DNA of 64,000 nt. Source: Balanoglossus misakiensis. Taxonomy: Eukaryota > Animalia > Hemichordata. A program made the position numbers and the translations under genes. The notes under the pieces are model-generated. The model searched no databases, was not told where the DNA came from, and was given only the letters and a program-made list of their open reading frames with translations. The stretch spans positions 372,001-436,000 of the forward strand of contig CM082588.2 of assembly GCA_040954595.2 (NCBI GenBank). Reading direction: 5' to 3'. Shown in pieces: positions 3,001-44,100 of the stretch (positions within the stretch are counted from its first letter, which is position 1; the number at the start of each line of letters is the position of its first letter).

Positions 3001-3076
3001 ACTATACTACCAGTACTTAAAATCACACCACTGGCTCCTCTGTCATGTAATATTGCATGAGACAAACACCACTGAC

Positions 3077-15464: not shown

Positions 15465-16280
15465 TTTTGTCAGAAATACTGTGCAAAACTAGAACACAAA
15501 GAGTTTTTATAGGATAGTTATGAAATAACCAGTTATTATTCTCGCCATCCAAATCCCACCATGAGTTAGAAAACACTTACGCATTCGCCAATATGCAAAT
15601 ATAACTACTGTTACCATGGTGCGGAAAATTAAAATATAGCCAATCAGATTTTCAGCGAGCGGTACACGAGAAAAAAAGTGTGCCATCACATGACATTCGA
15701 AGAGATAAATCATTTGACCATTCAATTGATATATGGACTAGTAAAGCTGATTCCTTTATTGTAAAATAAAACCCATTACAAACGTTTTGAATTATAATAC
15801 AATAAAGCTATTTTGATATATTTGCTTTTCACTCCATCAATTATCAATTGTCTGGGTTCTCATCCTGCGCCAGACTTGCTTTGCACCTTTGACCTACTCC
15901 ATAACTAGAAAGGAGGATTCTGTCACATGCTGGTCGATGATGTTATTTTCGTGTCGTCCAACCATTCATGATTGCAGACTGTTCAGACCATGATGAATGC
16001 GCTGTATGCAACATATTTGCGTTTGTATATCAGTAAACTACTGTTTATAACAATAGGCCGTAATATTGGTTCGGCGAGTGTGTGGGGTGACTGTGATTCT
16101 AGTTATCTCTGGTCACAGGGACTCTACTCTGGTCAATCGTCCTCGACCCTGACCAGTTTTGGTCCTCGAGTACTTCATAGGGGGCGCGCTCGATACCCTG
16201 CCTTATCAGTAACCTTTGACCCTGAAAGTCGATCTTGGTGACTGACCGAAGACAATACCAGTTGCAGGGATTTCCACAGA

Positions 16281-18821: not shown

Positions 18822-20309
18822 TTTCGTTTATGGTCATATCGTCACGGTTGTCAAGGAAACAAATCGGTCATTTTAACGCACAAATGATACGCATGGAGAC
18901 ATTCCAAAATGTGCCTGTAAGAGTGTAGCCTCGTCCTCAACACTTTTATTCATGCCACGGGAACTTTGGCATGGATTTGAACTTTGCCAAGATAATTTTA
19001 ATTTTATTCGGGTTGTGTCAATCCATCCAAAGCTTTTAAAGGTATATTTACGCATGTACAATTTAAGATTTTATATGGAGTTATGTGGAATACCTAAGAA
19101 TATTGAGCAATAAAGGTTTATTTTAATGGTATTTCAGACTCACCCAGCTCTAATGGACTCGTCCAGACATTTTATTCTTAAGTCGTTTGTCACGTTTATC
19201 ACGTAGTCGTGTGTCCAAAATACACCTTTATCTGATAATCTTGAACGACAAATCACGGATGTTTCCTACGCACTTGAATTCCCGAGGGATCCTGTTGCTC
19301 GTTTTCCCAATACTGTTGAAATAGATAATCGGTTCGCCTTCTGTGATAAGGAGGTGTTTGAGGACAACTCTGCATTTCCATGAATAATCCGCTATAAACG
19401 AAGACGTGTTTCAGCCGTGCAGCGTGCTGCATGCCTGATGAAGACGACTTTGAGATTACCATAGTCTACATTGTGATGCGTAAAAGAAACTTTTATCGGA
19501 ACTTTCATGCAAGTATTTTGATGAAAGTTTTATGCATTTATACCATTGCCAGAAAACATGGGTGTACTGCCGCTTGGTGGCGCAATAAACAAATATTTGA
19601 GTGAATGGCACCGTGACCTTTATGATTTATGAAATGAAACTTAAGCTTCGAGAAATAACAAGCTCTCAGTTTACACAGGGACAAACATTTGATATCGCCT
19701 CTTATCTCGCAATCTTGCACTAACCACGATTTATGCAGAGGGTATTGAAGGAGACAGAAAGTAGAGCCTGGGATGTCAGCTGTAAAATGTATAGTTTAAA
19801 TCAGACTCCCGTTGCCGGGGAAACGCCAAGGATGGTGCATTATACTTTACGAATCTCATAAATACTTCACACCAAGAGACAGATTTGGAGCTTGAATTAA
19901 TCAATTCCCTTCGCATTTCCGGATAGTTTTGTCTTAGTAACGATACACTGTCATCGAATACTGGAAAATTAATGTATTTTGTATGTTACATTTATGCGCA
20001 TTATAGCAAATATATCTTCAGCGGTTGAATTATAGTGTTGTTGTTTTGAATATTGGTTCGTTCGCATAAAATTGGCACATTCCAAATATACCCCCGACAT
20101 GAATAGACTGGTTTGCCCTTCCTGGTAATAATCAGGGGTTATAGGTTATATACACGTAACGCCTCGAAACTTAAACATTTTCTCCAACAGCGCAACAGCG
20201 GGTGGCTTGTCCACTCTACCTCTTTAGCTGGTGTCGCTGAACAGAAATCAGGGCGAATCGAATCCACCCACGGGAAAAGTTTTACAAACGAGGCGTGCAG
20301 CTGCGCAAC

Positions 20310-23300
20310 ATGGCTAAGTCTCAGCCCCCGCAACAGTTTTACGTCAGTGCTGTCGCTGGCGTGGTGGCAATTTTAACCGCCGCTGCTCTTGTATCAGGAA
20401 GCGGGTTGCTCGCTTACTTTCTCCGACCATACGGCTGCGAATTGTTGGAAGATGTGCGCGATCCCCGACCGACCGCGAGACCGTCGTCATCGCCGCTACC
20501 GACGACCGCACCGAAAGAACCCTGGGAGAATCACCGGCTCCCAGACACACTTGAGCCGCTCGTTTACAACCTGAAGATTAAAGTCGATCTTGACGAATTT
20601 GTGATTGGAGGGAGCTCGGAGATCACCTTCACTTGTAAAGCAGCAACAAGATTTGTGATTTTGCACACCAAATTGCAGGAGATTGACACGGAGACTGTGA
20701 AAGTATGGCGTCGATCGGACAGGCAAATTTTAGAGCAGTCGGCCACTCCGAGTGTATATCCACAGACCCAGTACCTTGTCATAAAACTGTCGATGACATT
20801 GGAAGAAAATATTGAGTACGTGGTAAAGGTTGAGTACACGGGGGACCTTCAAGATGATTTGATAGGAATATACAGAAGTTCGTATCTGAACGATCAAGAG
20901 GAACGAAGGTTGGTCAACAAAAATTGCTAGCATGACCTGTCTGACTTTTTTGTCGCGCAAGCTTGTTTCTCATAATCACCAATTTATTTCTAGAAACTCA
21001 CTCACTATAAATATTTGTGAACATATGGCATATATAAATAACACTATTATAATAAACGGTACTTGTCTAAACGAAGTTAATAGTGTATTCCATGTTTTTC
21101 AACGATTACACCCACGTATTTCAAGTAAAGATTGAAGCGCAACTTTTCTTCTCAACAGATACTTAGCGGCGTCATTTTTCTCGCCAGCCAACGCACGCAA
21201 GGCTTTCCCTTGCTTCGACGAACCAGCCATGAAGGCCAATATCACAACAACTCTGGTGCACAGACCGGAATACGTGGCGTTGTCTAACATGCCAGCGACG
21301 GGTCAAGTTAGCGACGGTGCTGGGTGGATGGAAACAACGTTTGAACAGACTCCAAAGATGTCCACCTATGTGGTGGGGTTCTTTGTCAGTGATTTTAAAC
21401 ACGTAACGAACACTTCAAGGGACAGAGTTGAGGTATGTTGTCATTCCACACTCGAATGCTTCCACCATGTCTACCATTTAAATGCATTTGACAAATCATG
21501 ACTTTTTACGCTTGTGGGGGGGGGGGGACAATATGGAAAGTGCAACTCTTGTTCTTGCATAGGCATTCGCTAAAGATCCGTGACCGGACGACTTCCTAAG
21601 ATAACGAAAATAAAAGAGCCACTTCTATAATGTTCGATTAACACTATCACTGAAATCCCAACCTATTATCAGACTACTTGTGCTCTAACGAAGTCATAAC
21701 ATTATACGTGTCTGGCTATCTGGACATTTCCCCCATTAAATGATAAAATCAGACTTCTCCAAGATCCCTTCAGTTCGTGACCAGAAAACAAACTCGTGTT
21801 ACTATAATGTGTTGATCACTATGGTAAAGAGAAAAGCCTGACAAGGTTTCCAATGTCTTGTATGTGTTTTTGGTCTACCAATAGTTTCGTATATGGGCAC
21901 GAGAAAACGCCATAGACCAGGTACAATACGCCATGGACATAGCGATTCCTATTCTCGAATATTTTGAAGATTATTTTGACATCAATTTTCCATTGCCGAA
22001 AATAGGTTAGTGTACTGTTCCATTACTACTGAGTATCCGCAAGCATCTTTGGTGCCTCTGAATTCTCTGTTTGTCGTCCTGTTATCGTGTATTTTTCGTT
22101 TCATAGTGCATATGTATGCTGCAGTGCCATAAAATATGAACCTAACTTTGGATCTACATATTCTCCACCAATTTTCTTTCCGTAGACATGGCAGCCACTC
22201 CTGATTATGGTGCAGGGGGCATGGAGAATTGGGGACTCATTAACTACAGAGAAAGTGCATTCTTATACGATCCCCGAAGCACCACGTCGGTTACAAAACG
22301 AAGGATCGCCTCTGTAGTTTCCCACGAACTGGCTCACCAGGTAAACCCATGAACAGTTTGAGTTGGTGGGAATTTTTTGGCTTTACAGATACGTCTAAAT
22401 CTTTAGGGAAGCCAGTACTGCTGCAGTCTAAGCGAGCGCGACGTTGATAGGTCAGACCCTATCTTAACTTTGTTTCCATGACCTGTGGTTTTCCTGCAGT
22501 GGTTCGGAAACTTAGCCACGCACTGGTGGTGGGAAGACCTGTGGCTGAAAGAAGGATTCGCCAGTTTTATGGAATACTATGGCGTTGACTTGGTTGAACC
22601 AAGCTGGAAGATAGTAAGTTTGATCAATGATATTATTAGTGAATGCAATTTGTAACTCACACTGTCAGTGATGTTTGTCAGTCGACTGCACTAAACTGTG
22701 CGTAGAATACAATGCATAATGTAACCGGACAGATAATGATTATTTGATTCGCATTGCAGTTAGACCAATTTTTGATCCTTGATCTTCACAACGCACTCAG
22801 TCTGGACGCGCTGCTGACATCACATCCGATCTCGGTGCCTGTCAATCAAGTGGATGAGATCAATTCCATATTTGATGCCATTTCATACAACAAGGTAAAT
22901 GCCCATGGTTGTATTGAAGGTATACAGTCATCCCCAAATTACATACGCCTATATATTATTTGTAGCTCTACGCAGTGTGAACAGAATCAGCAGTTGTTTT
23001 TTCTTTCAAAACTGTAATTGATTACTGGCAGGCTTTATCCACACAGTGTTGCACAGGTTTTTGTTTTGGTCAGGATAATTAATAAGCTTACATTTAACGT
23101 CCACCATTTTTTTACGCAGGGCGCATCTGTGATAAGAATGCTACGTTATTTCATTGGAGAAAGTACGTTCAAGAAAGGATTGAAAGTAGGTTCATGTAGA
23201 TGAGTCGACACATCATCGTTTTGAGCTTTCACGCAAACAGCTCCAACTGGAATACAAAGGAATGTGGACTCAGTACAATCAGAGACATTGCATCTTGAGA

Positions 23301-26300
23301 TTTTAAAAATCAAAATCGGATATTGTGCGAACAATTGACGTGAAATGAATCACAATTGGACCATATAAATCTGATTTTATTTACTAGTAATGTTTTCTGT
23401 GAGTGTAATTTTAAATGTTTAACCAAATCTATATTTTACCTCTCAGAAATATCTAGAGCGGTTTGCATACAGTAATGCAAAGATGAACGATCTGTGGGAT
23501 GCATTGACAGAGGTGAGTAGTTGTCGTGTGTTTCATAGACTGGGTATAAAACATCTTGTATGCATTCTCCCAGACTGAAAGATTCTGTCCAGTGCGGGCG
23601 CTTTTCGGTGCCCACTTCCCGGCATCCTTTGTGTGGTGACGTCATGTGCGTCCTCAGGCCACCTGTTGTTTTTGCCAGAGAGCTCTCTCTCTGGCGTTTG
23701 CTGTCGTCGAGTGAAGACGTGTTTTCACGCTCGGCGGACTAAAAGACACCCAGAGCCGCTAGAAACTTTTCTACCAGAGATATTTGGTTATCAGACGAAC
23801 GAGTGTTTCTCCCGTTATCTTCCGTGTCTATTCAGTGGGCAGTGAGTCAGCAGAAAGTCGAAATTTTCGTGGCAGTCACCCTCAGGGCATGGTACTCCTT
23901 ACCAGGTCACCGGAGCGAATCGAGTAGCTCCACATGGTGATCAGAGTGCTGTCACGTTATCGACTTTGTTACTCAGGTTAATGTGCAAAGATGAGTTCGT
24001 CTTATAAGTCAGTTGTTGACAGGCCTATTTGAAACATTTGGAGAATAATTTTGTAAGACTTTATTAGAATTTCATATACAATTTTCTGTGGTGACGACCA
24101 TTTCTCTTGTCCTTCACAACAAAGATTCAGAAAAAAAGAACAATATTCACGACTCACTAATTTGCATATTGTATCGACAGCTGTTTGCTCCTACAAAATT
24201 AGTAGTGGTTTGATGCGGGCAGTCACTCTCAGGGCATCGTACTCCTTACCAGGTCACAGGAACGAATCAAGTAGCTCCACATGGTGATCAGAGTGCTGTT
24301 ACGTTCTCGACTTCATTACTTGAGTAAAGTGATTTGCAGTGAAGTGTTGGACTAGTGAATTTGAAACCAACGAGTTTAAAGAAGGGGGGGGGGTCACCAA
24401 GGATGATTTTTGCATTTTCGTGTCCTGGGAGGTTGGTTAGCAAGTCGCCTCTTTTCTCTGAAAAATCAAAGGAAAAAAATGTAAGGCTTCAAAATAGTGC
24501 ATTGTGGAACGGGGGGGGGGGGGGGGGCTGTACCATCTGTATTATATTTTACGTGTCTGGTCTTTGTGCAGTGCCGAGTCAACAAAAAGTCGAGATTTTC
24601 GTGGCAGTCACTCTCTGGGCATGGTACTCCTTACCAGGTCACCGGAGCGAATCGAGTAGCTCCACATGGTGATCAGAGTGCTGTTACGTTATCGACTTTG
24701 TTACTCAGGTTAATGTGCAAAGATGAGTTCGTCTTATAAGTCAGTTGTTGACAGGCCTATTTGAAACATTTGGAGAATAATTTTTGTAAGACTTTATTAG
24801 AATTTCATATACAATTTTCTGTGGTGACGATCATTTCTCTTGTCCTTCACAACAAAGATTCAGAAAACAATATTCACGACTCACTAATTTGCATATTGTA
24901 TCGACAGCTGTTTGCTCCTACAAAAACTTGTATGGGGGGGGGGGGGGGGTTGATTCGGGCAGTCACTTCGGGCAGTGCTGTTACGTTATCGACTTCATTA
25001 CTTAGGTAAACTGTTTTGCAGTGAAGTGTAAGAATAGTAAATTTGAAACCATGGGGCGAGGTTCACCATGGATGTTTTTTGCATTTTCGTGTCCTGGGAG
25101 GTTGGTTAGCAAGTCGCCTCTTTTCTCTTAAAAATCAAAGGAAAAAAATGTAAGGCTTCAAAATAGTGCATTGTGGGACGGGGGGGGGGGGGGGGGGCTG
25201 TACCATCTGTATTATATTTTACGTGTCTGGTCATTGTGCAGTGCCGAGTCAACAAAAAGTCGAAATTTTCGTGGCAGTTACTCTCTGGGCATGGTACTCC
25301 TTACCAGGTCACTGGAGCGAATCGAGTAGCTCCACATGGTGATCAGAGTGCTGTTACGTTATCGACTTTGTTACTTGGTTAAAGTGTTTTGCAGTGAAGT
25401 GTTAGACTAAATTAAAACCAGAGTATAAAAGGGAGGGGGGGGGGGGTCCACCAAGGATGATTTTTACGTATATGGGTCCTAGGAGGTTGGTTAGCCAACA
25501 TAGTCATTTTCACCAACCGTAAGTCACCCGTTTTTGCTAAAAATCAATGAAAACAAATGACTGTATAAAGCCTCAAAATGGCGCATTGTGGGTAAAGAGC
25601 GCCGCGTGTGACTGTTGTATCTTCAGACATGTTTTACCAAAGCAGCAGAAATCCTGAACCGACAATACAAAAGTAGTTTTGAAGTTGTTTTCATGTCACT
25701 TATAGATGGTGTCCTGCCGTTTTAACGTGTATGACGATAGGAACGGTTTCTCAATTGTCTGCGTTTTGTTTCCGTTGTCAGGCCACACGCGAGGATGACC
25801 TTGAACTCCCAGCTCCCATTGATGACATCATGAACACGTGGACTTTGCAGATGGGTTACCCTGTTGTCACTGTCACGCGAGATTACACGAGAAATGGCGT
25901 CATCACTTTCTCTTGTGAGCAACGCCAATTTCTGATTGATCCCTTGGCTGATTTGCAAGACGAGTAAGTCTTGTTCTTAACATCAACAACACCAGCAATA
26001 AAAAACCTGTCATATAACACTTTCGATGACAACTCGTAGATAAAAATGAAACATTCCTGTGATTTTTAAACGCACAAGGCTTTTGATTGGACGTGTACTC
26101 ATAATACGTCACATAGTTGTGGTGGCGTTTGAAATTTCTTTCGTTTTTATCCTGGTAGGCGAACGTGGTACATACCACTGACGTTTACAGATGGATCTGA
26201 TCCCAGTTTTGCCGAAGAGGACTTAAGGCAAATATGGTTGGAAAGAGGCTCAGGCAGGTTTTATTGCACATGACTCTCTCTCTCATGTTAGATACTAGTG

Positions 26301-28923
26301 TTTCTATGCGTGTATGCGGTTTTTAAGTGTATATATTTTGCGCATACAGACAATCCATTCAATGCCGTTTTTCTTTTTGGTAATAATCAGTGCTCGAAAA
26401 AAAGATGTTACTTTAATAAGACAATAGAATTTGGGTGGGGTTCCAGTTCATGATGATGATACTGATGATTTGAAGTCATTGTCTACACTCTTGTGGGTTT
26501 ACTGTCTATTTTACAAATTGTATTTTAGTGAGTATGGATGACGATACCTCACTGTCCGGGGGGAATGAAAACTGGTTGTTGGCCAATATCAACCAAACTG
26601 GCTATTTCATCGTCAACTATGACGAAACCAATTGGGATCTTTTAAAGCGGCAGTTAATTGAACAATATGAGGTAAGACTCATAACTGCCTGTTGTTATTA
26701 AAATAGCTTTTCATGTCGTTTGTTCATATTACGATGACTAAAGTACATATAACAGGTGTACATTATCGATTGGTTGGTGGATGGAGAGGGGGGGGGGGTT
26801 AGAGGGGGGAGACATCTTATTTAACCTGTTATTCTTCTCAGGTTATACCTTCTGCCAGTCGTGCGGCACTTCTCAATGACATCTTCAGTCTAGCTAGGGG
26901 AGAACACATCTCTACTGTGTCTACTTTGGAGTTAAGTCGCTATCTGAGACATGAGCGTGACTACGTGCCTTGGGTGGCAGCAAGCAGGGCGTTTGATTAT
27001 ATGGAAAGTATGCTTCGTACATCCGCGGCTTTCGGTGCATTCCAGGTAGAGTCATAGTCGCCATGATATTTTTAGCACAATTCAATATTAAAGGTACACA
27101 GTCGTTGTTTACATATGCCCATATATGGTCAAAAGGGCACGTCTTGAATAATGTAATGCTGTCATCAGACGGCCATTACCGATCAGTTGTCTCAATTAAT
27201 AATTATACTCGATTACAATCCCAGTCTTATGAAAAATATTTTATTCCATTTTACAAGGAATATGTATTAAATCTTGTAACGCCGTTCTATGAAAGTCTTG
27301 GTTGGGATGATTCGGATTCTGATGACTTGGAAAGGTAAATCATGTCTACTTGTTTTGATATTTGTTTGATTAAATTAACATAGTCACTAAAAATATTCCT
27401 CTAAAAGTGGCCACTGTGAAATCGAAATGGGAATCTCTGTTCCAACTGTTGATTGGCTGACAGGAGAGCAGGTGCTCCATGATTGGTCCAGTTTTACAAC
27501 AGGTGTTGTTGGCTGTTGTAAGCCGGGAAATGCAATGGTGTTGTGCAATCGTTCAGACATTGATCTCAGGCCTACTGTCCTTGTCTTATTAATACTGGAA
27601 TGTTTGTGTTTTAACTTCAGTATCTCCAGAACCTTAGCACTGAACGTGGCCTGTAGCAATGGCCACCAAGGCTGTATACGGGAGGCAGTTAGATTATTCG
27701 AAGAATGGATGTCTGACAGCCGTAATAACCCGTAAGTTAAATTGGTAGAAACCAATTCTATCATTTAAATATGTAGTAATTATACACATGTAGTCAGTCA
27801 GTCAGTCATATTAGCTGACTTAGTTTCTGATCGACCTTTTCAGGATCTCACCCAATGTCAGGGACGTTGTATACTGTGTCGCCATTGGTCATGGCAATAA
27901 ACGTCACTGGGAATTTGCTTGGAATCAATACAAGGCCACTCAAGTCAGTAGTGAAAAGTCATTATTGATGGGTGCGATGACTTGCAGTCGAGAGCCTTGG
28001 ATACTTAGTAGGTGAGGAATATCAATACATTGACTGGTTTTAAAGAAATACAATGTCTGATCAGATGCATAATCAATTGCATGAATTGAATGTCGAGGGA
28101 GCTGGGTTGTTTCTTTGTTTGAAGTTATTTGAGAACTTAGACTATGGTTCGTAACGAGAAAGATAAACGTTTTCATCGGTTGCAACTTTTACCGCAGGTA
28201 TCTTGGATTATGTTTGCAACCAGAAGAAATTAGTCGGCAACATGCCACTTGGATCATTGCAGAGATTGCCGCCAACTCCATAGGAGAGTCACTGGCATGG
28301 GACTTCTTTCGGTCAAACTGGGACTACTTTTTCGCCACGTAAGATTATTACATTGAAACGATAGGCAAGGCTTTGCACACCAACTTTGATAGCAATGCGC
28401 TGATCGCTTGTTGTGTGGACACATACAGTCTTGTTCGAACTGGACCTTGATTGCATCTTACAACTACTTTGCATAAAATGCATATCATTTGACACCTTCG
28501 GACCCTCTCCCCAACAGATATGGAACCAATATGTTCTCTTTTCCTGATCTGGTCAATGGAGTTACTGGTGCATTCTCCAGTGAACTGAGACTGAATGAGG
28601 TAAAGAAATGTTTCCTCGGCGCTTTAACCTTCGGTTTCTTTATTTACGTCATACTCTTATAGTTCAGACAAACAATCGATTGATTTCCCATATTGCGGTC
28701 TGTCAGTCGCCATCCAAACTCTCCAGAGTTGCTCAGTTTCGATGTATCCTGTTTGTTTCAGCTTGAGGACTTTATAGCAGAACATGACAACCTTGGAACA
28801 GCCGCCAAAGCGTTCCACCAAGCAGTGGAGAAAACAAAAGCCAACATCAGATGGAAAGAAACAAATGTCGACAACATACAGGCCTGGCTTGACAATGAAT
28901 ATTACACACCACTTCACGTGTAA
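20310..28923 (+). CDS. Type II membrane M1 zinc aminopeptidase (APN/TRHDE-like), 18 exons
   Basis: Exons 20310-20908, 21159-21432, 21885-22005, 22186-22340, 22500-22613, 22760-22894, 23120-23185, 23447-23512, 25782-25963, 26159-26253, 26529-26671, 26842-27045, 27258-27334, 27621-27731, 27844-28011, 28198-28338, 28518-28599, 28762-28923. Signal anchor, [25 protein letters not shown]...[21 protein letters not shown] and an ERAP1-like C-terminal domain. Confidence 0.95.
23840..25590. repeat. Tandem array of ~2.5 units (periods ~732 and ~670 bp) in aminopeptidase intron 8; the two full units each hold a 131-nt fold-back element plus a degenerate half copy
   Basis: Near-identical copies of GAGTCAACAAAAAGTCGA...TCGACTTTGTTACTC at 23844-23974, 24576-24706 and 25246-25376. 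Partial copies at ~24217-24322 and ~24955-25005. Spacers and poly-G runs are shared between units. Confidence 0.9.
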
Positions 28924-29424: not shown

Positions 29425-32400
29425 TCATAAAAGCCTGTCATGAATGTAGGAGACAATGTCACATCGAGTCATTTCCGGATCTTCCAGGAATTCTAGGAGG
29501 TTTCCAACAATGGCGTCTGGACTGGTTCCCCAATCTTTCAAGAGGGCGTCGCAAGGGTTGCTTTCCATTGATAGCAAGTTCACTTCGAGTGCAGTCTTGC
29601 CCATGACAGCTTGGAGAAAATATTAATAGATCTATTTAGTTGATGTGTCAAACATGTCAATTAACCATGAAATCGCAGACAATGAATAGTGCAAAAAACA
29701 TCAAGAAAACAAATAACTTGTCACCTACCAGCTAAACCCGTCCAGTCAGTACCCAATGTCTGTCTGACGTTGAGGGCGGTGCAGATATAACGATATAAAT
29801 CATGTGGTAGGTTCATGACATGCGTGTTCATCCTAACCGAACGCGAGGTAGTCCGTTTGCTCCCACTTTCTGGTGTCATTTCTTGATACGCCTATGGATT
29901 GAAAGGAAACACTGATTCTGTAAAAGGCATTCAACAAGCAGAAACCGTGCGACTGCATAGAAATGATGGGCAGCGTCGACGCTGTTCTTGCACTGGCCTG
30001 TGATTCTTATGATATCTTCTGGACAAAATCACCTGTAATTTACATATGCCTATATATGGTCAAGGAGCCTGTCTAAACTTTTTATCGTGTGGCCACCCAC
30101 TGGAAATGTGGTTGGCTAGATGTCAATTTTACATGGTCAATGTGGCTAAAGTTTCACAGATGACCGGGCACCTTTGGCCAATTTTAACACCGAAAGCTCT
30201 TTGTACAGGGAAATAAAGTAGTCCTTGCCAATTCAGTTCTGTTCTAGTTCATCATTTTCTTCAAGAATGAAATACTGCCGATGGGTCTTACCTTTCCATC
30301 TCGAACCTGCACCCGTCTACCGTTACACCAAAATGTCAATGAACCCAGACTTTCGAGGTCGACTTTGCTACCTGTTGAAAACATCTTGAGAACATGGAAG
30401 TTGTTTTTCTGTGGAAAAGTAAACAGAAAAAGGGTATGATGATATCGGCCATGTATAAAATTCTATTTAAGAACCTTGATGATTTCGGGGTTTCTGTGCA
30501 GTCTATCACTACTGATACTGGACGGAAAGTGGTACATACCGTGTCTCGATTTATCTTGGGAATGTCGTGAGGTGTCTGACATGGACACTTTGGACCCATG
30601 GTATACAGACACTTCTCAAAATCTCGTTTTATAATCCTGTGTATTCTTTCTTGTAGGATACACGCGACCTTCATGGGTTTTTGGCGGGGTGTTGATCTTA
30701 TCACGATCTCGAAAGCGTTCTCTTCTTTCAAGAGCCTTAGTTTATAAATAATGTCATCACTGAAGTGAAAACTCCCGAAATCGCTGAACATGTTGGCATT
30801 GAAGTCGCCGTTTCCTGCTCCAAATCTGTGATCGTGTCGAAGACACTGACACAGAAGTCGCAGGAAAACGGCTCCCGGATGAAACAAACCGAAGTTGACG
30901 AATAGAACCACATCGTTAGGGTTGGACTCCCACTCACAGAGATGCTCGTTTTGGTTGAATGATGGCAATAGTTTCGGAATGGCATAAAGTGTTTCCACTT
31001 CTCTCTTGTCGTCTGCTTCCTCCTCGTGAAGCACAGTTTTGACCATATCATGATCTTGGCAGCGATTCATAGCTATTTTGCATATGAGGTCATTTGACTC
31101 GAGCACTTCGAGAACCAACTTCACAACCAGTCCCCCTGTATCACATTCAACAGAACTGCTCTGAGATTGGACAGCACTCTTAATCACGTGACCCAGGAGT
31201 TCCTGGCGACAAATGCCGGTCTCTTTTAGTTCGTGCCATTGGTCTTTGTAACCGTACTCTTGATTGGCCACTGGAGGGATACTGACGATGGCAGCCATGA
31301 CATCCACAAGGAATTGCGGCGCAAACACTATCACCTGCTCCAGCGTATCGTCATTCCCTTGATAAATAATCTCCCCTATGTTCTGGAAAAAGGCCAACAT
31401 TTCTTTGAACTCACTTTGAGACCTTATTTTGTACTGGGAATCCCCAAGAACAAGTTCTAAGAAATGATTGTAGCGTCCGATAAAGACACCCTGTTGGCGT
31501 TGAGCTCGTATCTCATTCAGAAACGCCCAGAATTTGATTGGCCATTCTTTCTTCATGTATTCCGCGTTCCGAGCCCGACTCCAAACTTCATGACGAAGTT
31601 TGCCGAGGTCTTTGTCGGCTTTAGACCTGTCGACCGAATTTTCAACTTGGAATAAGGCTGAGTCTCCGTCATCGTTCCACACGACAATATTGTGGTACTT
31701 TCGTGGAAGACGTTCCGTGACTATCTTGGCCACATTTGCTCGTTCATTCGGACAAACAGAGTCCCTGTGTGTGCCAACGATGAAGATGGAAGCATTCGGG
31801 TGTTCGGCGTGGCTGTCGATTGAGTTGAGCCAATAAAGAATAGTTTTGAAGGTGGCGTCTATGTCTGCCACTGCCTCTTGCAAATTGAAGACTATAATAT
31901 AAATAGACTGACTGTACATAAATATATGATGCGCAAAATGATACAGCGGGTGTCCGGCAAAATCCCGGATAGTAAGTTCTGTTCTTTTCCTGGGCATTAC
32001 ATGAGCTTTGATCACGTGACTTGACTTTGCAGTCTCGGTTGGTCTTTTCATAGACGTCCTTCCGGAACTGTAAAATATGTGCAGCAATTCCACCATGACA
32101 ATAAATAAAATAGCGAAGACGTACTGCAGTCTGTTGGCGGCGCTAGGCCATCCCCATCCGCACAACAGTGCTAGTAGTAAACCAGACGGGATGCCAGCCG
32201 TGTAGGTGAAGAACCGCCATCCCTGTTTGCCGAATTTCGCTTTTATTTTACCAAACACACTGACGTAGAGCTGTCTGCCCACAGATAGTCCGTTGCCATG
32301 GGTAATCCCTAAACCCAGTCCGAGTATAAAGGTATACAACCACGTCCTGCTTGAAGTGTACTCGTGGATGATCGCAATGACTGGCACGATAAAATAAGAA

Positions 32401-33284
32401 TGAAAACCTGTTTCCTTGTGGCTTCCTAACCCAACAAGTGTGCCAATCATAAAGAGAAAGATGTGTTTAATGCCTTCGTCGCAAAGGAAAGTGAACTCGT
32501 CCACATCCAACGACGGAGGAATCATAACACAGAGTGATATAGCCATTCCTGTTCCAAGGGATGCACCGAACGACACTCCAATAAAACTATCAGTCACGGC
32601 TCCTATGAGAAAACTGGCCACCAAGGCTATGAGGGCGCCATAGTTCTCCGACAGGTTGGCCATGGATTCATGAATCCGCCAACGGATCACGGCGTCTGAT
32701 AGGACGGCCAGTGCGTAGATGCCGATTGCGATTCCAAATCCGTCTCGAACACCAAACTCCAAGGCTGCAATGCCGAATGTACCGATCAGGAGAAATGCGA
32801 ACCAGGGAAACAGCGCTGTCAGACCATACTTCATACCGACGTAGTAAAGCACCATTTTGGTTGACGTTATGAAAAATATTTTAATCATTGTCTTGGCATA
32901 ATGAAATGCCTTCTTGTGTGTTTTGGAGAGCGCTTTGGGTGCCAGGATCCGGAGCGTGTGTTCGCCAACCGCCTCTTCAAACTCATTAGTGCCCATGTTA
33001 TCAATCACTTCCCAAACATCATTAACGCAGTTTGCATCTACTAGATCGTGATCAATCCCTACCGTGCTGACCTCATTAGGGTCAAAGTTTTGCCGACTCA
33101 GAGCTTTGCGCAGACTCGTCTTTCCTTGTCGCTCTTTCCCGACGATGTTGACGATACTCCGATGGCATTGTTCTTTTCCAGTTTCTATTGCTTGATTCTG
33201 TGCCTTGAGTCCTTCGGGTCCCGCTACATAACCGGTGCCTGGTGTCAGACCCATTTCATAAATAGCTCTGCTTTCTTCAGCCAT
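29425..33284 (-). CDS. Roco-family protein: Roc GTPase (with multipass TM insert) - COR - death domain, ~1069 aa, 4 coding exons
   Basis: Exons 30540-33284, 30292-30408, 29729-29891, 29425-29609 splice in frame with GT-AG junctions. G1 GKERQGKTS, G2 STVGID, G3 DFAGH, YIIVFNL, YWLNSI, G4 IVGTHRD, G5 VEN. COR: WPIKF...FFQNIGEIIY...PQFLVDVM...YAIPKLL...FLRLLC. Death domain: LYRYICTALNV...DWTGLAAVMG...NPCDALLKDW...IVGNLLEFLE...RCDIV. The tail of the 982-aa ORF after residue 915 is intron read-through. Confidence 0.9.
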
Positions 33285-34446
33285 TTTGGTGTTAACACTT
33301 CATCGTCAAGAACCACTGATGCACATACTGTGTGTTCTGAAATAAATCAAAATGTGATTTTCCGCTCAGTGTGAGATCCCGTGACGGTGACTCGGTTAGC
33401 AACAGGTTTCTAACTAAGTAATGAAAGTCAAGCTTCCTGGGGTTTGTCTGTGAATTCTTCAGTTTTGATCTTTTCGAACTTTTGTCGTCGAGACCATAAA
33501 CTTGGATCCTGGTCGTGAGTCTCAGTGATCCGGATGTGTCCAAGTCACCCAGTTCACCGATTTATTTGGCGTTTCCTGATCACTTTCTTGCCTTTCTCGC
33601 CGTTATTGAACCATGCATAATACACTAAGGCAACAGGTCAAGGTAGCCTGTATATGTGAAGTGACCAATTTCATTGTTGACAAATGAATTGGTGTCTGGC
33701 CGCTGTCTGTTCACTGTATCACTGGCTCTGTCAAACTTCATAATGGTATCTCGTCATAAAGACAACAAGAAACTTCATTTGATCGCAGGTCACGGCAATT
33801 GCAGCATTAATTGACTACTTAAAATGTGTCAACTTCAAGTGTTTTGCACGATAGTTCGACACCATAGAGAAAATCGTATATATAATCGCCAGACCATAAC
33901 ATATGAGGTGAACGTCGTTGCTATGTACTGACTTCGACTTTTAACACTGGATAAACAAAGACACGACAAGTGAGTAATAAATGTTCTGATTGAATTACAA
34001 ACTTAGCAGTCGGGCAAATATGGTACAAAAACAGGGGAAATATGCGTCATCTTGATATGACAGGTTAATAATAAATAAGGAAGTCCAAAGTTCCGTTACT
34101 ATCCGATGTAATGTTTACGCCTTATTACGTCACGTTATGTGTACGCAATAAAATGCGATTTTCGACGAAATTTGATAAATTCGGTAATCGCCTTCAGTTC
34201 GCAAATAAGATTATGGTTTTCTTTAGAAATTTTGGATCTGTGTATGTTGTCTCGCAAGGCCGTTTGTGCATGGATAGTGAAAAGTAAGCCCACTGAGTTC
34301 TACGGAAAGTATGAGTCACGGATGGGGTGTTCCCATGTTACCACTACAGAGTATATCATTACGCCCCCCCCCCCCCTCACCACTTCCACCAACAAGCACT
34401 CATTCATAACAGATTTTGTCAGTAAGCCTAGTTCATATTTCACGAG

Positions 34447-37130: not shown

Positions 37131-38556
37131 AAAAAATAATAGTGAATGTGAGAAATCGGATTTGTTGCGATTTGTTGGAACAACCACTGACAAACGTGTT
37201 GTCGGCTATTGTAAACACTTTCTAGATTGATGACTTTCCCAAATAATTTGCCGAGTAGAAGCAGACTTTATTCAGTACAACTAGAGCTAGACTGTTACTC
37301 GATCGTTTTCCAAACCCAATGCATGCAAAAAACAACAAGATTTGTTTGGCAATTTTCTGTGATCTCCCTGACCCACTTCTTAATCATCACCGTAACTATC
37401 GTCAACTTAAATTCTACAAAAACTCATTCATGCCATCTATTTATTGATTGAATAATGTGTTTTATCTCTCTAGTTTCGTGCGCTGAATTATTTTGAGTCA
37501 TATTTTCATGCGTGAAATTCGATATGCGCTTATCTTAACTTGTTATGCTGGCTTTAATGATATCGTCAACCTCAAATGGAATACAAGATATAGTTGAGCG
37601 GAAATTTTCAATTCAGACACTTGTTTTATCTTCTGTATGTGTAAATGTAAGAAAAGAAAATGTGAAGCCAATGTTATCTGTCAGTCGGACCATCGGTGTT
37701 TGACGGTATACATCAACGTCCATCCGATCGCTTGTTAATTTCATGAAATCGGCAACCGTGTGTGTAGTTGTATTCTATATACAGGAACATGATCGCACAC
37801 TGTGTTCCGATTGTACATAAAGCAACGAACATCAAATAGAAACTTTTTCTCCGATATCAAAAGCAGTTGAAAAAGAAAACTTATCTTAAGAAGCTTTGTC
37901 TTAAATTATAAAGATTGTTACAAAATAACTTGGTTAGCTTTCACAATCGAGGCATATATTCACTCGTTGCAGGAACGTGGGCAACTCGATTGTACCGTAT
38001 CGTGAATTTCCTTTCGTCTGAGTTCCATAGAATAAAGTTTAAAGGTATGTATTTTACGCTGAGATGCGCGGCTTGAAAGATCGATTTCTGAGTATATTAA
38101 AACGAATCCTCCCAGGCCTCTATGAGCTTCGGGATATGGATTGTCAAGCTATGAGTTACCTGTGCGGTCGTTTTCTTTTTCAATTTCTGTAATGGGTGCT
38201 GTTTCTCAGGGCGTTTTGAAGATATTGATCAGACGCTGTTACAGGTATATCCTGAAATCTGCATGACTGGTTTCCTGGCTGTGTGTGGATTCGTGCTGTG
38301 CATATCCGTGTGAAAAACATGGGTTTTAAAGTTGTCGAAAAAATACCCACCGATAGAATAAACGTTACATACACATATGTTTGATGACAAATGCAATATT
38401 GTCATGGATTATCAAATGTCATAATAGGAATTGTCAATCATCTCTCTGTAGGTTTTCTACAGATCTGACTCTCGACCTTACATGTCTGTACTGTGAGGCG
38501 TCAAGCATTCTGTCCAAACAGTCTGGTTCCTGAGTCTTTATCCGTCCGTGTTGATC

Positions 38557-39648
38557 ATGAACAACAGCGACAACTCTACAGTACCATCGAACTGGTCATT
38601 GCACGTTACCATGGAGTCCACGATGTCAACCGAACCTCCAATCCAACTTGATCGACCGATCATCTTCACCTGGGCCGACATTTGTAAAGTCATCATGGGC
38701 ATAGTTGGTATTGTTGGCAACGGTCTTGTAATTCTGACGGTTTTCAAAACCCCAAAATTGAAAACCCTGACAAATGTATTCATAGTCAGTTTAGCTATAG
38801 CTGATCTGATCACATCGATCTTCATAATCCCATATCCATTAAATGGCGTTCCCGATGGTTTTCTTGGCGAGCTTACTTGTCGTATTTACGTTTCTGGGTT
38901 TCTGTTATGGCTTAACTTTGACGCGTCTACTTTCAATCTCATGGCTGTGACCATAGAGCGTTATATTGCCATTGTTCACCCAGTTGTCTATAAAACACAT
39001 TTCACGAAGTCAAAAATCAAAATTATGGTTATTGCCGTTTGGTTGCTTTCAATTATACCACAGAGTTTCTGTCTTTATATTTGGAAATACGATTATGAAC
39101 TACATGATTGTAAGCTGGAATGGCCAGGCACCGCGGAATTCCAACTTTTTGTCGGGGTTGGTCTTTTCCTGTCAACTTACTTCATCCCTCTCATTTTGAT
39201 GTTCATCGTTTACACTCGCATCATGTTGGTCTTGAAGAAGCGCGCCAAGGAGCTGAAAGACAACAAGCAAAACAACCCGGCTCTTTCTTTACTGAGGGCT
39301 CGAGCAAATGTTGTCAAAATGCTTTTGATCGTGGTTATTACATTCGGTGTGTGCTGGGCCCCTGATCAGTTCATGTTTTTGGGTTACAATTTTGGAATGT
39401 ACGTTGATTTCTCCAGTATTTATTATCGTCTGATTATTCTTGTCGCCTTCTGTAACTCCGCCATGAATCCCTTCATATACGCCTTTAAAAACAAGAGCTT
39501 TCGTAACGGTTTCAAGAATTTATTATGGCGGCGAAGTACGGCGGTTGTTGGTACAGAAAGTGGCACTGCCACCACGAAGACTCAAACTACAGCAGTGACG
39601 TCAGTGGCACCAAGGCAACAAGCTGATGACGTCGAAACTATGGCATAA
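38557..39648 (+). CDS. Class A (rhodopsin-like) GPCR, galanin/allatostatin-A/somatostatin receptor-like, intronless CDS
   Basis: Seven TM segments; GN (TM1), SLAIAD (TM2), ERY, ECL2 Cys, CWAPD (TM6), NSAMNPFIY (TM7); N-glycosylation sequons in the N-terminus. First ATG at 38557. Confidence 0.93.
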   Translation: MNNSDNSTVPSNWSLHVTMESTMSTEPPIQLDRPIIFTWADICKVIMGIVGIVGNGLVILTVFKTPKLKTLTNVFIVSLAIADLITSIFIIPYPLNGVPDGFLGELTCRIYVSGFLLWLNFDASTFNLMAVTIERYIAIVHPVVYKTHFTKSKIKIMVIAVWLLSIIPQSFCLYIWKYDYELHDCKLEWPGTAEFQLFVGVGLFLSTYFIPLILMFIVYTRIMLVLKKRAKELKDNKQNNPALSLLRARANVVKMLLIVVITFGVCWAPDQFMFLGYNFGMYVDFSSIYYRLIILVAFCNSAMNPFIYAFKNKSFRNGFKNLLWRRSTAVVGTESGTATTKTQTTAVTSVAPRQQADDVETMA

Positions 39649-41107
39649 TCAACAAATGGATAACATTTTGTCTTTTGCTTGATCGTTTTTCACTAAACAT
39701 TAATTCATATACTATCATGAGAATTTCGTTTACTAGTAACGTGTTTAGTGGAGACCGGTCGAATAATGTGACTTATAAATTTCATCTACTACATATCTGT
39801 ACCATTCTACTTCATATTTCAGTAGTTTAACTACTTTTTACTTATATAAAGACTATATTAACTTATTACTGTTTTTTCTGTATATATTGAACATCAGTTA
39901 ACATAGATAGGCAGTTGATATCTTGCATCAAACATCCTTAATATATTTATATTTAATCACAGGTTTTAATGCACAACTAAACTCATTCACTTGAGACACC
40001 TTTGTATTCAACTGCAACACATTTTTATTCAAATTCTCACAAAAATATTTGCTGTAAAAGTTTCAAAATATATACACTTCTGTTGAACAGATATGTACAG
40101 GACACATATTATTCTTCATCTCCTTTGTAGCAATATATTAACAGTTTACTGTGACATTGATATAAAATACCAGCAAAAAATGATTTTACTTTAAATTACA
40201 GGCTGTATTTTTACATATTTACTCATTCAAATATTGACATATGTATTAGATTGAATTTCTCTATTGTTTTGCACTAAATATGTTTTCATTTGTGTAAACT
40301 TTAATGTGGTATATTATTCAATTAACACTCATTGTAAATTCAAAAGGTAAAAAGAGTGCATTTGCTTTTATGAATGGAATGTGGAAAGGATTGACTTACT
40401 TTAGTCAGAGCGAAACCAAAGATGTTGAATTTCTGATGGACGGATGTAATTTTGAAATAAAGCATGCACAGAATCCAACTGGACGGGGTTACTTTTGAAG
40501 GTCTCTTTTCCTTATTATGAGCCATATCAGTATGATTCTGCTTAGCTAAGTGCAGTGTACAACTAGAAATGGTATCACTGTAATGTTGAAGAAGCCACGT
40601 AACTGGGAAGTGGACATGATGGCCAGGTTCAAACTTGAGTTGTGCACTGTCAGAAGAACCTGAACAAAAGACAGCAGTTTCAATGACGAACAGTTCAGTA
40701 CTGGTTGTGTCAATGAGGAAATTATTTTCTATGTACAAAGATGCGCTTTGAAACTGTCAGATTATGACAATCCATGTCATACAAAGGGTCCCAGATGTTC
40801 CATCTGAAATGCACAGATTCACAGGTCTAATTGCATTCAGATTGCTCCAATCGAGCAGGATGTCTCGACTGCTCACAAAATCCTGAACATGAAAGCTGAT
40901 ACACACGAAGGACACACGTATTCTGAAAAAGAACGTGTAATTCTTGTGGAAGACGCAGCTGCCTTACCATAATTCAATGGGACAAAAATGTTAACAAGAC
41001 AAGCATCAAAAGTCAAGGTGTGTACCACTTTGCAGATAAACACTGAAAATACAGTTCAATAGAAATCATTGAAGAGTATAAGAAAAGCCATTCAAATTGG
41101 ATTAAGA

Positions 41108-44100
41108 CTATTTCTTTTTCTTGCCCGCACTCTTTTTACCCTTGGCGCTTTTACGTCCTTTTGGTGACGGAGAACTCTTTTCTTGCTCTGCTTTCAAAGC
41201 AGCTTCTTGAGCTGCGATTTCCTCAAGACGTTTCCGTTCAGCTTCTAGGAACTTCTGACGGAAGGCTTCTCGAGGCTCATTGATTTTGGCCCTTGCAGCA
41301 TCCAAGGTAGACTGGAAATAAACATAGAACAGATTTGTGGCCTTCTGGTCTTCAGCACTGACATCCTTACACTTTCAATTGGTACATAAGATTGCAAATT
41401 CACAGCCTGTGACATCAACTGCATAGCAAAGGGGATTTGGGAAAATGTCTATTCTATTCACACTTCACAAAGTTGCGCATATGATTGAATGCTTAACTCT
41501 CTCACCTGTAACCTTTCACATTCTTCTATCTGTCTTTCCTTGGCAGCATTCCGTCGCTTCCTGTCATCTTCCCGGACTTCCAACACTTCGTCCCGGAACA
41601 AACGATATTGTTGTATCATCTTCTGTTGCTCCTCTTCCTCTCTCCTCATTTCTTCCTCATCCAACAGCCTTGGTTCAGCGTTGCTTTGTCTACATCAGAA
41701 AAAAGTACATTAAAATGTACAACTGTATCTGTCCACCAAATTGGGTTCCAATTGGATCAGCAATACTTGAGATATCAATGATGCAGAACACATGCACACA
41801 GACAGACATACAGGGTCACATTGCTGGACACACGAGATCTCGCAATCAGCAGAAAATCATCTGCTATAACCCACCTGATGAATGGTGTTTTGTCAATTTC
41901 TCGAAGCATTTCTTTAGGAGCTGGTGGCGGTGGTGGCTCATTTGTGAGTATCATATCTGCCGGGTTCTCTTCTATCTCAGAGGCTGGTGTCTTGGGTGGA
42001 CCGTCACTGATTGGTTCGCTGAACTCCATATCTTTGCTCTCTTCATCTTCACTTTCTTTTTCCACTTTCACCATGTTCTCTTCCAGGAATTTCCTTCTGG
42101 ATTCCTGGGCTTTTGCAGCTCTTCCTGGTTCTGCTGCCTCCCACGCTTGTTTCATGGCACGGATTTCATCTTGTCGTTCAGTGTCCTTCTTGATTTCAAT
42201 TTCCTCCTGAAAGACAACAAGTTTGCTTCCAGTTTTCGGTCTCGTTCAAATTCTTATATCTGAGGCGGTGATGCAAATCACGATCAACAGCACAGAAAAA
42301 ACACCCCAACTATTTCCTTTTCTGCCCTAGTCATCATCTATCAGCGATTATGCATCAATACTCACTGTTGGTGTCTGGTCTAAGACGACTCTTAATGTCC
42401 AATTAGGTTTTGAGATATCAAATTGCTGAGATGACGGTCTTGATCCCTTGTCTTTATCTTTCTCTTTCTCCTTCCCCTTTTCCTTGCCTTTCTTTCCACC
42501 ACCACCTTTGCCCTGATTGGCTGCAGCTTTCTCGCTTTTTGGAGCCGATATCGGTCTGTCTTTGTTGGCTTTCAGTTCATTTTTCTCCAGGTCTTTGAGC
42601 ACCTGTACAAACGCCCAGCTGCTCTCGGAAAGTGGCCAACTTTTCCTCAAAACTTTGGCTTGGATGATGTACTTGTGTGGCTGTAATGAACAAACATACT
42701 CCAATATCAGTCACTGGCGTTAAGATTTCCACCTGTCCATGCCATGCACTGAGCTGGGACTGATTGCCTAGCAAATATGAAGACACCACTCCAAGCAAAG
42801 AATGTTTCAATTGTGTGCTGTTTTAGCGTGTTTGCTGAAAAACATTCTGTCGCTCATTCATTGCACAGCGGAGAGTCCATACTGACTCTGTTCTACTAAT
42901 ATACACTTCTCACCTTAATTTCGTGTTCTTTATCACTTCCACCATCAAGGTCATCATCAGGTCGATGCAATTCAGCCGATCCACGACTTCCTCTTGAACC
43001 CCGACCATCCCGACTACCGGCTGATTCTTGTCTCTTCTTAGCAGAACTCACACTGGAACTGCTCAAAGAAGTGTGTAATTTGCTCCCACCACGTTGTGCT
43101 GGAAATAAAGTCAATACTCCTGTCTATGATGTGTCTTGATTTCAGGCAAAGGACTATGAACTTACTGTATCATACATATGTGATGATGAACTACACGAAC
43201 TGTACTTCAACTCTGCCAAACTTTTGAACTCAACTTTATACACTGTAAAGTATGCTAGTAAGCATGTTAATTGATTCACATAGCGAAATGACCAGTGAGT
43301 ATGATGGGATTGTGCATTTTGTGGTAAGGGATCTCAACTTACATGCTCTGCTGCTCGATCGTCTTGGAGGTTGGTCTTCCCCAGGTTCACGGTCACGCAA
43401 GAAAGTAAAAGCTGGTATAACCACATGTCCCTTCCCTGAGGTTTCTGTGACCTTGACCTCGTTGTCTAGAACTTGCAAGAGAATGTACACATCTGGTTTA
43501 GATGTGCAAAGTTGAATGCTGGCTATCTGGTCTTCAATCACCTTCACTGAGTACCTACAAACAGAAAAGAAAACATGGTCAGTTTCAGTATTGTATCAAT
43601 TGTACACTCAGTAGTTCATATTATTATTATGCATACTTCCATGACAATAAATAGAAGAATTAGAGAGAGATGGAAGATTTGCAGTAGACTGAAAATGACA
43701 GTAGAGTCAATCCCATGTATCATTATTGACTGCTCACACTTTCAACACTATAAAGATATCTGTCTCACCGCAGTATGATATGGCTATCATTTGGTAGATA
43801 GTAGTCTCTGATTTCTTTCACGTTGAATGTGCTGTTGAGATTTTCCCTGATTGGCTGCGGTAATGGACTCAGGGATCCAATCAGCCTCATCCTCCATTTA
43901 CCAGTAGGTAGTGGCATTTCTGTTGTCCGAGCTTCAGCAACAAACGTGTATCCTCGCTGGAAAAAAAAGTCATAAAAACATTTAGAGAATGAATGTACCA
44001 GACTTACAATTCAATAACTGTGTTTAGAAACACAACCCAGTCTTTCAAGACCTAGAATCTGACCACTTCTACAGCTGCAAGATATGCTTAGAAGTCAGAC

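Follow-up and report, generated by a model that had tools for sequence, protein, structure and literature searches.

The 64,000-nucleotide stretch of the Balanoglossus misakiensis genome considered here (contig CM082588.2 of assembly GCA_040954595.2, positions 372,001 to 436,000; hereafter the window) contains at 29425-33284, on the minus strand, a gene of four predicted exons that encodes a 1069-residue member of the Roco family. In sequence order, the protein consists of the N-terminal half of a Roc GTPase domain, an insert of ~275 hydrophobic residues, the C-terminal half of Roc, a COR domain and a death domain. As far as the architecture alone is concerned, it is very probably an integral-membrane Roco whose interrupted G domain refolds around the insert. 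The feature is real and ancient, and it is apparently undescribed.

The gene begins in a minus-strand open reading frame (ORF) at 30336-33299, with the ATG at 33284. An in-frame stop lies six codons upstream of this ATG, in line with the preliminary description of the locus. Exon 1 (30540-33284, 915 codons; all features of the gene lie on the minus strand) encodes the pre-Roc helices, the N-terminal half of Roc, the membrane insert, the C-terminal half of Roc and most of COR. Exon 2 (30292-30408, 39 codons) encodes the end of COR. It is identified by a tblastn match to residues 925-962 of the ortholog from Ptychodera flava (XP_070567855.1), by its GT-AG sites and by the alignment of the structural model with LRRK2 COR, which extends to ortholog residue 960. 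The linker and the first half of the death domain are encoded by exon 3 (29729-29891; tblastn, GT-AG sites), and the second half of the death domain and the stop codon by exon 4 (29425-29609; tblastn, GT-AG sites, Pfam Death). The three GT-AG introns are 131, 400 and 119 nucleotides long, and the spliced frame runs for 1069 codons with no internal stop and ends at 29425, the boundary given in the preliminary description. The Ptychodera protein matches the same four blocks in the window and no further block; a candidate exon at 30031-29944 was rejected because it has no counterpart in the ortholog. The single uninterrupted exon that had initially been proposed therefore holds for G1, switch I, the hydrophobic block, G3-G5 and most of COR, but the end of COR and the death domain lie in three further exons. 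Most full-length ortholog models begin at the corresponding methionine or only a few residues from it; one Lingula isoform has 38 extra residues.

The motifs of the G domain lie on either side of the insert. The P-loop, G1 (GKERQGKT, residues 49-56; 33117-33140), fits the pattern GxxxxGKT in 36 of 43 family rows, and the other seven rows are N-terminally incomplete. In some bivalves (P0010, P0011 and P0025) the middle K-E-R of the P-loop is replaced by V-A or V-C while G-K-T is kept. G2, or switch I (STVGI, residues 73-77; 33054-33068; STVGID at residues 73-78), aligns to switch I of LRRK2. On the far side of the insert follow G3 (DFAGH, residues 441-445; 31950-31964), G4 (GTHR, residues 504-507; 31764-31775) and a putative G5 (ENS, residues 548-550; 31635-31643), which is invariant in the ortholog alignment. 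G1-G4 are intact across the family, while the G5 label follows from position only. Pfam Roc matches the window with 54.5 bits (cut-off 27; E 1.8e-14) and passes in all 16 family members examined. COR (residues ~576-954; 30292-31559, spanning intron 1) is matched by Pfam COR-A in the window at E 3e-5 and 24.4 bits, below the 35.3-bit cut-off, and in 15 of the 16 family members at E<=1. The COR assignment nevertheless holds, because the structural model aligns to both LRRK2 Roc-COR and the COR domain of CtRoco. The death domain (residues ~975-1069; 29428-29831, spanning intron 3) falls just under the Pfam cut-off when exon 4 is searched alone (E 3e-4; 21.3 bits against 22.6) and passes it in the full-length ortholog (31.7 bits). 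This order of motifs and domains agrees with that first read from the DNA. As had also been claimed, neither the window nor the 16 family members has a Pfam match to LRR, ankyrin or kinase families.

By its Roc motifs and by the COR comparisons in sequence and model, the protein belongs to the Roco family, for which GTP binding, GTP hydrolysis and a COR-mediated dimer cycle would be expected. It shares with LRRK1/2, DAPK1, MFHAS1 and CtRoco the Roc-COR tandem with G1-G4, and its modelled ortholog aligns to LRRK2, LRRK1, MbRoco2 and CtRoco with Z scores of 19-26. It resembles DAPK1 in having a C-terminal death domain and no LRR (PMC6337361). It differs from these proteins in lacking kinase, LRR and ankyrin domains, in the ~275-residue hydrophobic bundle inside Roc and in the His at the Q61-equivalent position. 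Assignment to the DAPK1 subfamily, which has an N-terminal Ca/calmodulin kinase and ankyrin repeats ahead of Roc, was rejected, given the absence of any kinase or ankyrin match in Pfam, the stop upstream of the ATG and the common start of the orthologs. Assignment to the LRRK1/2 subfamily was likewise rejected, as there is no LRR before Roc and no kinase and WD40 after COR.

The insert (residues ~131-404; 32073-32894), a predicted polytopic membrane domain of Gly-rich helices within exon 1, lies between switch I and G3. It contains ten apolar segments, each with a mean Kyte-Doolittle (KD) hydropathy of 1.2-2.2, whose number and limits were set by hand from family-averaged hydropathy and the helices of the model. 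With a strict cut-off (19-residue KD window, 1.6), five segments are found in the window protein, 4-7 in 16 family members and none in six of six soluble relatives. The AlphaFold2 model of window residues 115-420, built from 43 sequences, is entirely helical, with a predicted local distance difference test score (pLDDT) of 87.1 and a predicted template modelling score (pTM) of 0.86. A re-entrant hairpin may be made up of segments 4 and 5, in which case the count would stay even. When alternate loops are assigned to the inside and outside, Lys and Arg amount to 17.5-27.6 per 100 residues in 'inside' loops versus 1.9-13.0 in 'outside' loops, and the inside value is higher in 16 of 16 rows (the 17 non-redundant rows of the alignment minus Nucella). 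The insert is thus very likely a polytopic membrane domain whose two ends lie on one side, and the Lys/Arg bias fits an even number of crossings with these ends in the cytosol. This supports the integral membrane bundle originally envisaged.

It might be supposed that the protein is soluble at rest and that the insert enters membranes only on activation, like the pore-forming executioner domains. Several segments are only moderately hydrophobic, 4-7 windows passing the KD cut-off of 1.6, and the protein ends in a death domain. However, all ten segments are apolar on family average and the Lys/Arg bias alternates as it does in a resident membrane protein, so that an inducible pore-former appears very unlikely.

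The site of insertion is defined by the alignment to LRRK2 Roc, in which the first matched stretch stops at switch I and the second resumes just before G3. In the known G-domain fold, two interswitch strands joined by a turn lie between these elements. Since the match breaks there, the insert would replace that turn. The distance from G1 to G3 is 389-426 residues in the insert-bearing family versus 149-187 residues in six soluble relatives (from a soft coral, Acropora and other records), which have no hydrophobic window. Among 11 metagenome loci (L001-L011), eight contain both G1 and G3, with a span of 162-171 residues, and the other three have no G1 in frame. In these eight the insert is short and hydrophilic, with no 19-residue window above KD 0.6. 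Soluble cnidarian-type Roc-COR proteins with or without a death domain, such as the ankyrin-Roc-COR-death domain protein of Dendronephthya (XP_028415846.1) and the metagenome loci, are the nearest relatives found. They share with the family the D-F-A-G-H form of G3 and an insert at the same site, but theirs is short and hydrophilic. The soluble Roc-COR proteins L010:221-3970, P0078 and P0079 have the same His-bearing G3, but the Val of switch I is Arg in them; ankyrin repeats and a death domain are also present in P0078. Long Roc inserts are known elsewhere, algal Roc domains ranging from 77 to 467 residues (PMC11378527).

These comparisons bear on the possibility that the bundle is a passive anchor or scaffold, which would fix a Roc-COR-death-domain adaptor to one organelle in place of the Rab-dependent recruitment used by LRRK2 and would have no link to the nucleotide site. 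The site is evidently a permissive loop in soluble relatives, given the spans of both the six proteins and eight of the 11 loci, and the LRR-ROCO proteins of Ectocarpus include Rocos with predicted C-terminal membrane anchors (PMC3341825). One or two helices suffice for anchoring, however, and here there are ten, in which buried residues (Lys, Asp, Ser, Cys, His and Glu) are conserved. A purely passive role is thus considered improbable. The Ectocarpus proteins, one of which has a repeat region inserted into Roc (PMC3341825), also differ in other respects. Their one or two predicted segments lie after COR and are not a polytopic domain inside the G domain, and they belong to an expanded, fast-shuffling LRR family (PMC3341825; PMC4104024).

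Proteins from 17 named species, cluster members included, carry the insert at an identical position. These are two hemichordates, Lingula, a chiton, eight gastropods and five bivalves, so that orthologs with this architecture, for which a search had been suggested, exist in hemichordates, a brachiopod and molluscs. A search with window residues 125-415 found two hemichordate orthologs, and one with most of the Ptychodera protein gave 18 matches, of which 14 bear the insert and four are soluble Rocos. An exhaustive phmmer search of 1.84 billion representatives with the insert alone returned 13 matches. Twelve were family members or their fragments, and the last, an Elysia repeat protein (P0026) matching over 45 residues, was rejected as spurious. 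The insert is conserved about as well as COR, and better in the three closest orthologs: identities to eight orthologs are 79, 64, 37 and 25-31% for the insert versus 64, 51, 32 and 26-30% for COR. This pattern speaks directly to the view that the hydrophobic block is an intron or gene-prediction artefact and that the real protein is an ordinary soluble Roco. While the gene model here rests on genomic sequence, the block forms an open, in-frame stretch that is conserved, with recognisable motifs, across 17 named species of three phyla. An artefact is therefore extremely improbable, and the block is coding, as first described.

A tree of the Roc halves and COR-A (29 rows, insert left out) places the 18 insert-bearing rows in one clade (support 99/95), within which the branching order agrees with animal phylogeny. 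At the base, according to a warning from the program, long branches come together, and for this reason a sister relation to the soluble cnidarian-type proteins is not established. The insert-only tree (17 rows) has an open backbone but is congruent with the Roc tree, again giving a hemichordate, a gastropod and a bivalve group. In both, the window protein groups with Ptychodera and Glandiceps, as fits an acorn worm. Within the searches made, there is one gene per named species, and the family gives the impression of a single gene passed on by vertical descent rather than of a receptor repertoire that has expanded. A single gain before the protostome-deuterostome split would be the simplest history. 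Among the matches, chordates, echinoderms, arthropods, nematodes and annelids are not represented by any named protein; since the word-based searches scored ~8000 candidates each, loss in these groups is not established. Pattern scans gave 7 candidates in prokaryote genomes and 64 in viral contigs, none of them a relative, the patterns being drawn from Roc and not from the insert.

Some members of the family depart from the common form. The record for Haliotis rubra begins only within the insert, and in the model for Nucella lapillus (P0021) the last two hydrophobic segments are missing. As these are a pair, the topology would hold, but a prediction error is more likely. In isoform X2 of Haliotis rufescens (P0014, 705 residues), nearly all of COR is skipped and the membrane-Roc part is joined to the death-domain end; either a modelling error or a real splice variant that has no dimerisation domain may lie behind this. 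The very divergent P0027/P0061 branches outside the hemichordates, Lingula and the molluscs and has an extra hydrophilic stretch before segment 1. Its position in the tree could push the origin of the family deeper, but the branch is long.

The full-length model of the Ptychodera ortholog, which is 73% identical to the window protein, has a pLDDT of 76.6 and a pTM of 0.61. It aligns to LRRK2 Roc-COR as one body over 434 residues (Z 26.3; root mean square deviation, rmsd, 3.9; model residues 37-960) and to the isolated COR of CtRoco (3dpt_B) over 274 residues (Z 15.0). Additionally, 171 of the 173 residues of Rab33 are matched over model residues 39-581, with an rmsd of 3.3. Because the alignments to LRRK2 and to small GTPases run across the insert, the split G domain refolds in the model. 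The AlphaFold check that had been suggested for the two halves thus finds them forming a single GTPase domain.

No relative of the insert was recognised by fold or family. Among the 500 matches listed by Foldseek for the insert model against the PDB, none had E<=0.001, and none of the 500 listed from a viral library was significant. VIA-align comparison with 48,161 chains gave none at Z>=8, the best being Z 6.1 over 73 of 306 residues, and re-alignment of 978 Foldseek chains to the model gave a best Z of 5.5. The membrane domains of P-type ATPases recurred, with 140-167 aligned residues and Z 4.7-5.4, but this is below the chance level expected for helical bundles and was not accepted. In Pfam, a match of the insert to Phage_holin_9 (E 0.051, half its cut-off) was rejected, and NCBIfam gave nothing on the insert beyond single matches at E>0.05. 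None of the 60 PDB sequence matches listed for either profile lies in the insert, and the ESM Atlas gave no usable match for two family members. The absence of a significant match shows neither that the fold is new nor that it lacks a relative. Overall, the insert is a predicted membrane domain of no recognised family or fold, and it is a candidate new membrane fold.

Conserved residues within the hydrophobic segments may indicate what the bundle does. S242, C252 and eight glycines do not vary among the 17 non-redundant rows. Position 135 in segment 1 (32880-32882) is Lys or Arg in 17 of 17 rows, position 197 is Asp or Glu in 16 of 17, H329 in segment 8 (32298-32300) is present in 16 of 17 and E399 in segment 10 (32088-32090) in 15 of 17. 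S242 (32559-32561; 17 of 17 rows) lies in G-x-S-x-G-x-G, at the point where the model predicts a helix break (residues 241-243) followed by a ten-residue helix. K135 in the first segment and E399 in the last are each predicted to lie close to the cytosolic end, where together they could clasp both linkers to Roc. Charged and polar residues conserved inside hydrophobic segments would exceed the requirements of an anchor. One reading of them is an intramembrane enzyme, a Ser-His hydrolase, protease or acyltransferase switched by the GTPase. The invariant S242 in G-x-S-x-G at the predicted break, H329 and the acidic residue at 197 would suit such an enzyme, but small-residue motifs also serve helix packing and H329 is Phe in the most divergent member; the enzyme is accordingly rated a minor possibility.

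The bundle may instead be an effector, a GTP-gated channel or transporter opened when the Roco is activated, for example through the death domain, in the manner of the bacterial defence ATPase Tmn. A death domain is usually an output, which fits this arrangement poorly. The Gly-rich helices, the helix break at S242 and the buried polar residues are all compatible with a pore or transport path. Segments 2-4 and 8-9 resemble each other weakly and in register, which gives a hint of an inverted repeat like that of 5+5 transporters, with two homologous halves in opposite orientation, but the repeat is not significant: hhalign assigns the two halves a probability of 1.4% and a score of 17.2, within the range of 60 column shuffles (up to 18.2), and the best of six sub-splits reaches 11.6%. 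Tmn itself couples nucleotide turnover to ion loss (PMC13001434). We regard an effector channel as unlikely.

Tmn belongs to the KAP/YobI P-loop NTPases, which with Kidins220/ARMS and PifA among them offer a parallel in design, having membrane helices within the P-loop NTPase domain and roles in signalling and defence (PMC13001434). In YobI NTPases such as Tmn, two helices are inserted within the P-loop domain (PMC13001434). These proteins differ in being ATPases of another class with 2-4 helices and no COR. Membership in the group was rejected, since the NTPase here is a Ras-like Roc and only the design is similar; none of the 16 family members has a Pfam match to KAP/YobI. The preliminary description had stated that no account of such an architecture was known. 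None was found of a polytopic domain inside the Roc G domain in the literature searched, which excluded most subscription papers, and six ortholog locus names led to no papers. The main text of a 2019 Roco review does not contain the word 'transmembrane' (PMC6337361), and in another paper Roco occurs only in a reference (PMC8195603). The statement thus stands as to the full architecture, but it missed two partial precedents, the C-terminal anchors of Ectocarpus and the inserted helices of KAP/YobI.

The His after D-x-A-G in G3 is present in all 42 family rows that hold G3, of 43 examined, and occupies the position of Ras Q61 and LRRK2 R1398. The top PDB sequence match is the Roc domain of LRRK2 R1398H, a protective variant with His at the same position; here His is the natural residue. 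Two papers on this variant concur that it has more dimer and less of the GTP-state, and they differ over hydrolysis. In one, dimer and hydrolysis are reported to rise and GTP binding to fall (PMC4781896); the other, a preprint, reports a GDP-state dimer with less hydrolysis (PMC13345514). Because the soluble relatives have the same His, it is no adaptation to the insert.

In the model, the death domain superposes on that of p75NTR with Z 14.6 (rmsd 1.2 over 84 residues) and on that of MyD88 with Z 14.4 (rmsd 1.7 over 92 residues), and its profile matches MyD88 (E 7e-10), UNC5B (E 5e-8) and p75NTR (E 1e-7). With the scores for p75NTR and MyD88 tied, the class of partner cannot be read from them, including whether it belongs with the MyD88/IRAK adaptors, whose death domains nucleate a myddosome-like assembly. 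The window protein contains no TIR domain. Aplysia and sea anemones have proteins that join Roc-COR to TIR and death domains (PMC9334734, PMC5094078), which leaves an immune role plausible. It is not favoured over a developmental or survival signal of the p75NTR/UNC5 type, because the gene is apparently single-copy and because of the tie.

Taken together, these features can be read as those of a one-chain membrane sensor that signals through its death domain, an interpretation whose chances we put slightly short of even. In such a sensor, the input would be the binding of a ligand, ion or lipid at the conserved polar residues of the bundle (K135, D197, S242, C252, H329, E399). The resulting change in the bundle would shift the interswitch of the GTPase and so alter its GTP/GDP state. 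In Arf, the interswitch relays membrane contact to the nucleotide site (PMC2063696). The nucleotide state would in turn drive a COR-based monomer-dimer cycle like that of bacterial Rocos (PMC6337361), and the change of oligomer would cluster or expose the C-terminal death domain for recruitment of partners.

Several points weigh against this interpretation and the structural picture on which it builds. The full-length model is that of the Ptychodera protein and not of the window protein. Residues 72-98 of the ortholog, comprising switch I and the first interswitch strand, have a pLDDT below 50, and with a whole-model pTM of 0.61 the modelled geometry of coupling is of low confidence. The Lys/Arg test was not blind, using as it did the hand-set segment limits. 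Unstructured inserts are tolerated at the same site in the soluble relatives, which marks it as a permissive loop through which no force has to pass. The analogy with Arf is one of position only, as the toggle there depends on a signature that this Roco family does not have (PMC2063696). The most divergent member lacks several other conserved residues besides H329, and a one-copy, species-tree-like history is unlike that of an immune receptor repertoire.

In its most far-reaching form, the sensor reading would have the family unite receptor and G protein in one chain. Its membrane domain would be a new ten-helix fold with its own ligand or ion site, connected to the interswitch of a LRRK2-type GTPase and serving death-domain signalling as a built-in exchange or gating device, and it would date at least to the protostome-deuterostome ancestor. 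This fuller proposal is offered tentatively, as a possibility of about one chance in three. What switches Roc GTPases on, and how membranes promote the dimer cycle, is an open question for LRRK2 (PMC6337361). The family combines a membrane domain in the switch region with a His that it has naturally and that the protective LRRK2 variant has acquired. It also provides a kinase-free system, ~1070 residues long, that would allow membrane input to be measured together with the nucleotide and oligomer states. Additionally, mussels, abalone and pearl oysters carry it as a conserved signalling gene, listed as uncharacterised in databases.

No Roco paralog was found in the 64-kb window, to which that search was confined, and the neighbouring genes form no Roco cluster. 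Apart from the two described below they are ordinary: PET-LIM (3023-5248, minus strand), a sulfotransferase (14634-15464, plus), a two-pore-type potassium channel (16242-18821, plus), a rhodopsin-family G protein-coupled receptor (38497-39648, plus) and androglobin (~41100-59000, minus). An M1 aminopeptidase gene (20241-28923, plus; Pfam Peptidase_M1_N) lies tail to tail with the Roco gene, its apparent last exon ending ~500 bases from the Roco stop. At 11127-11558 on the plus strand, 18 kb from the Roco gene, a short ORF encodes a TIR domain (Pfam TIR E 4e-9, above cut-off).

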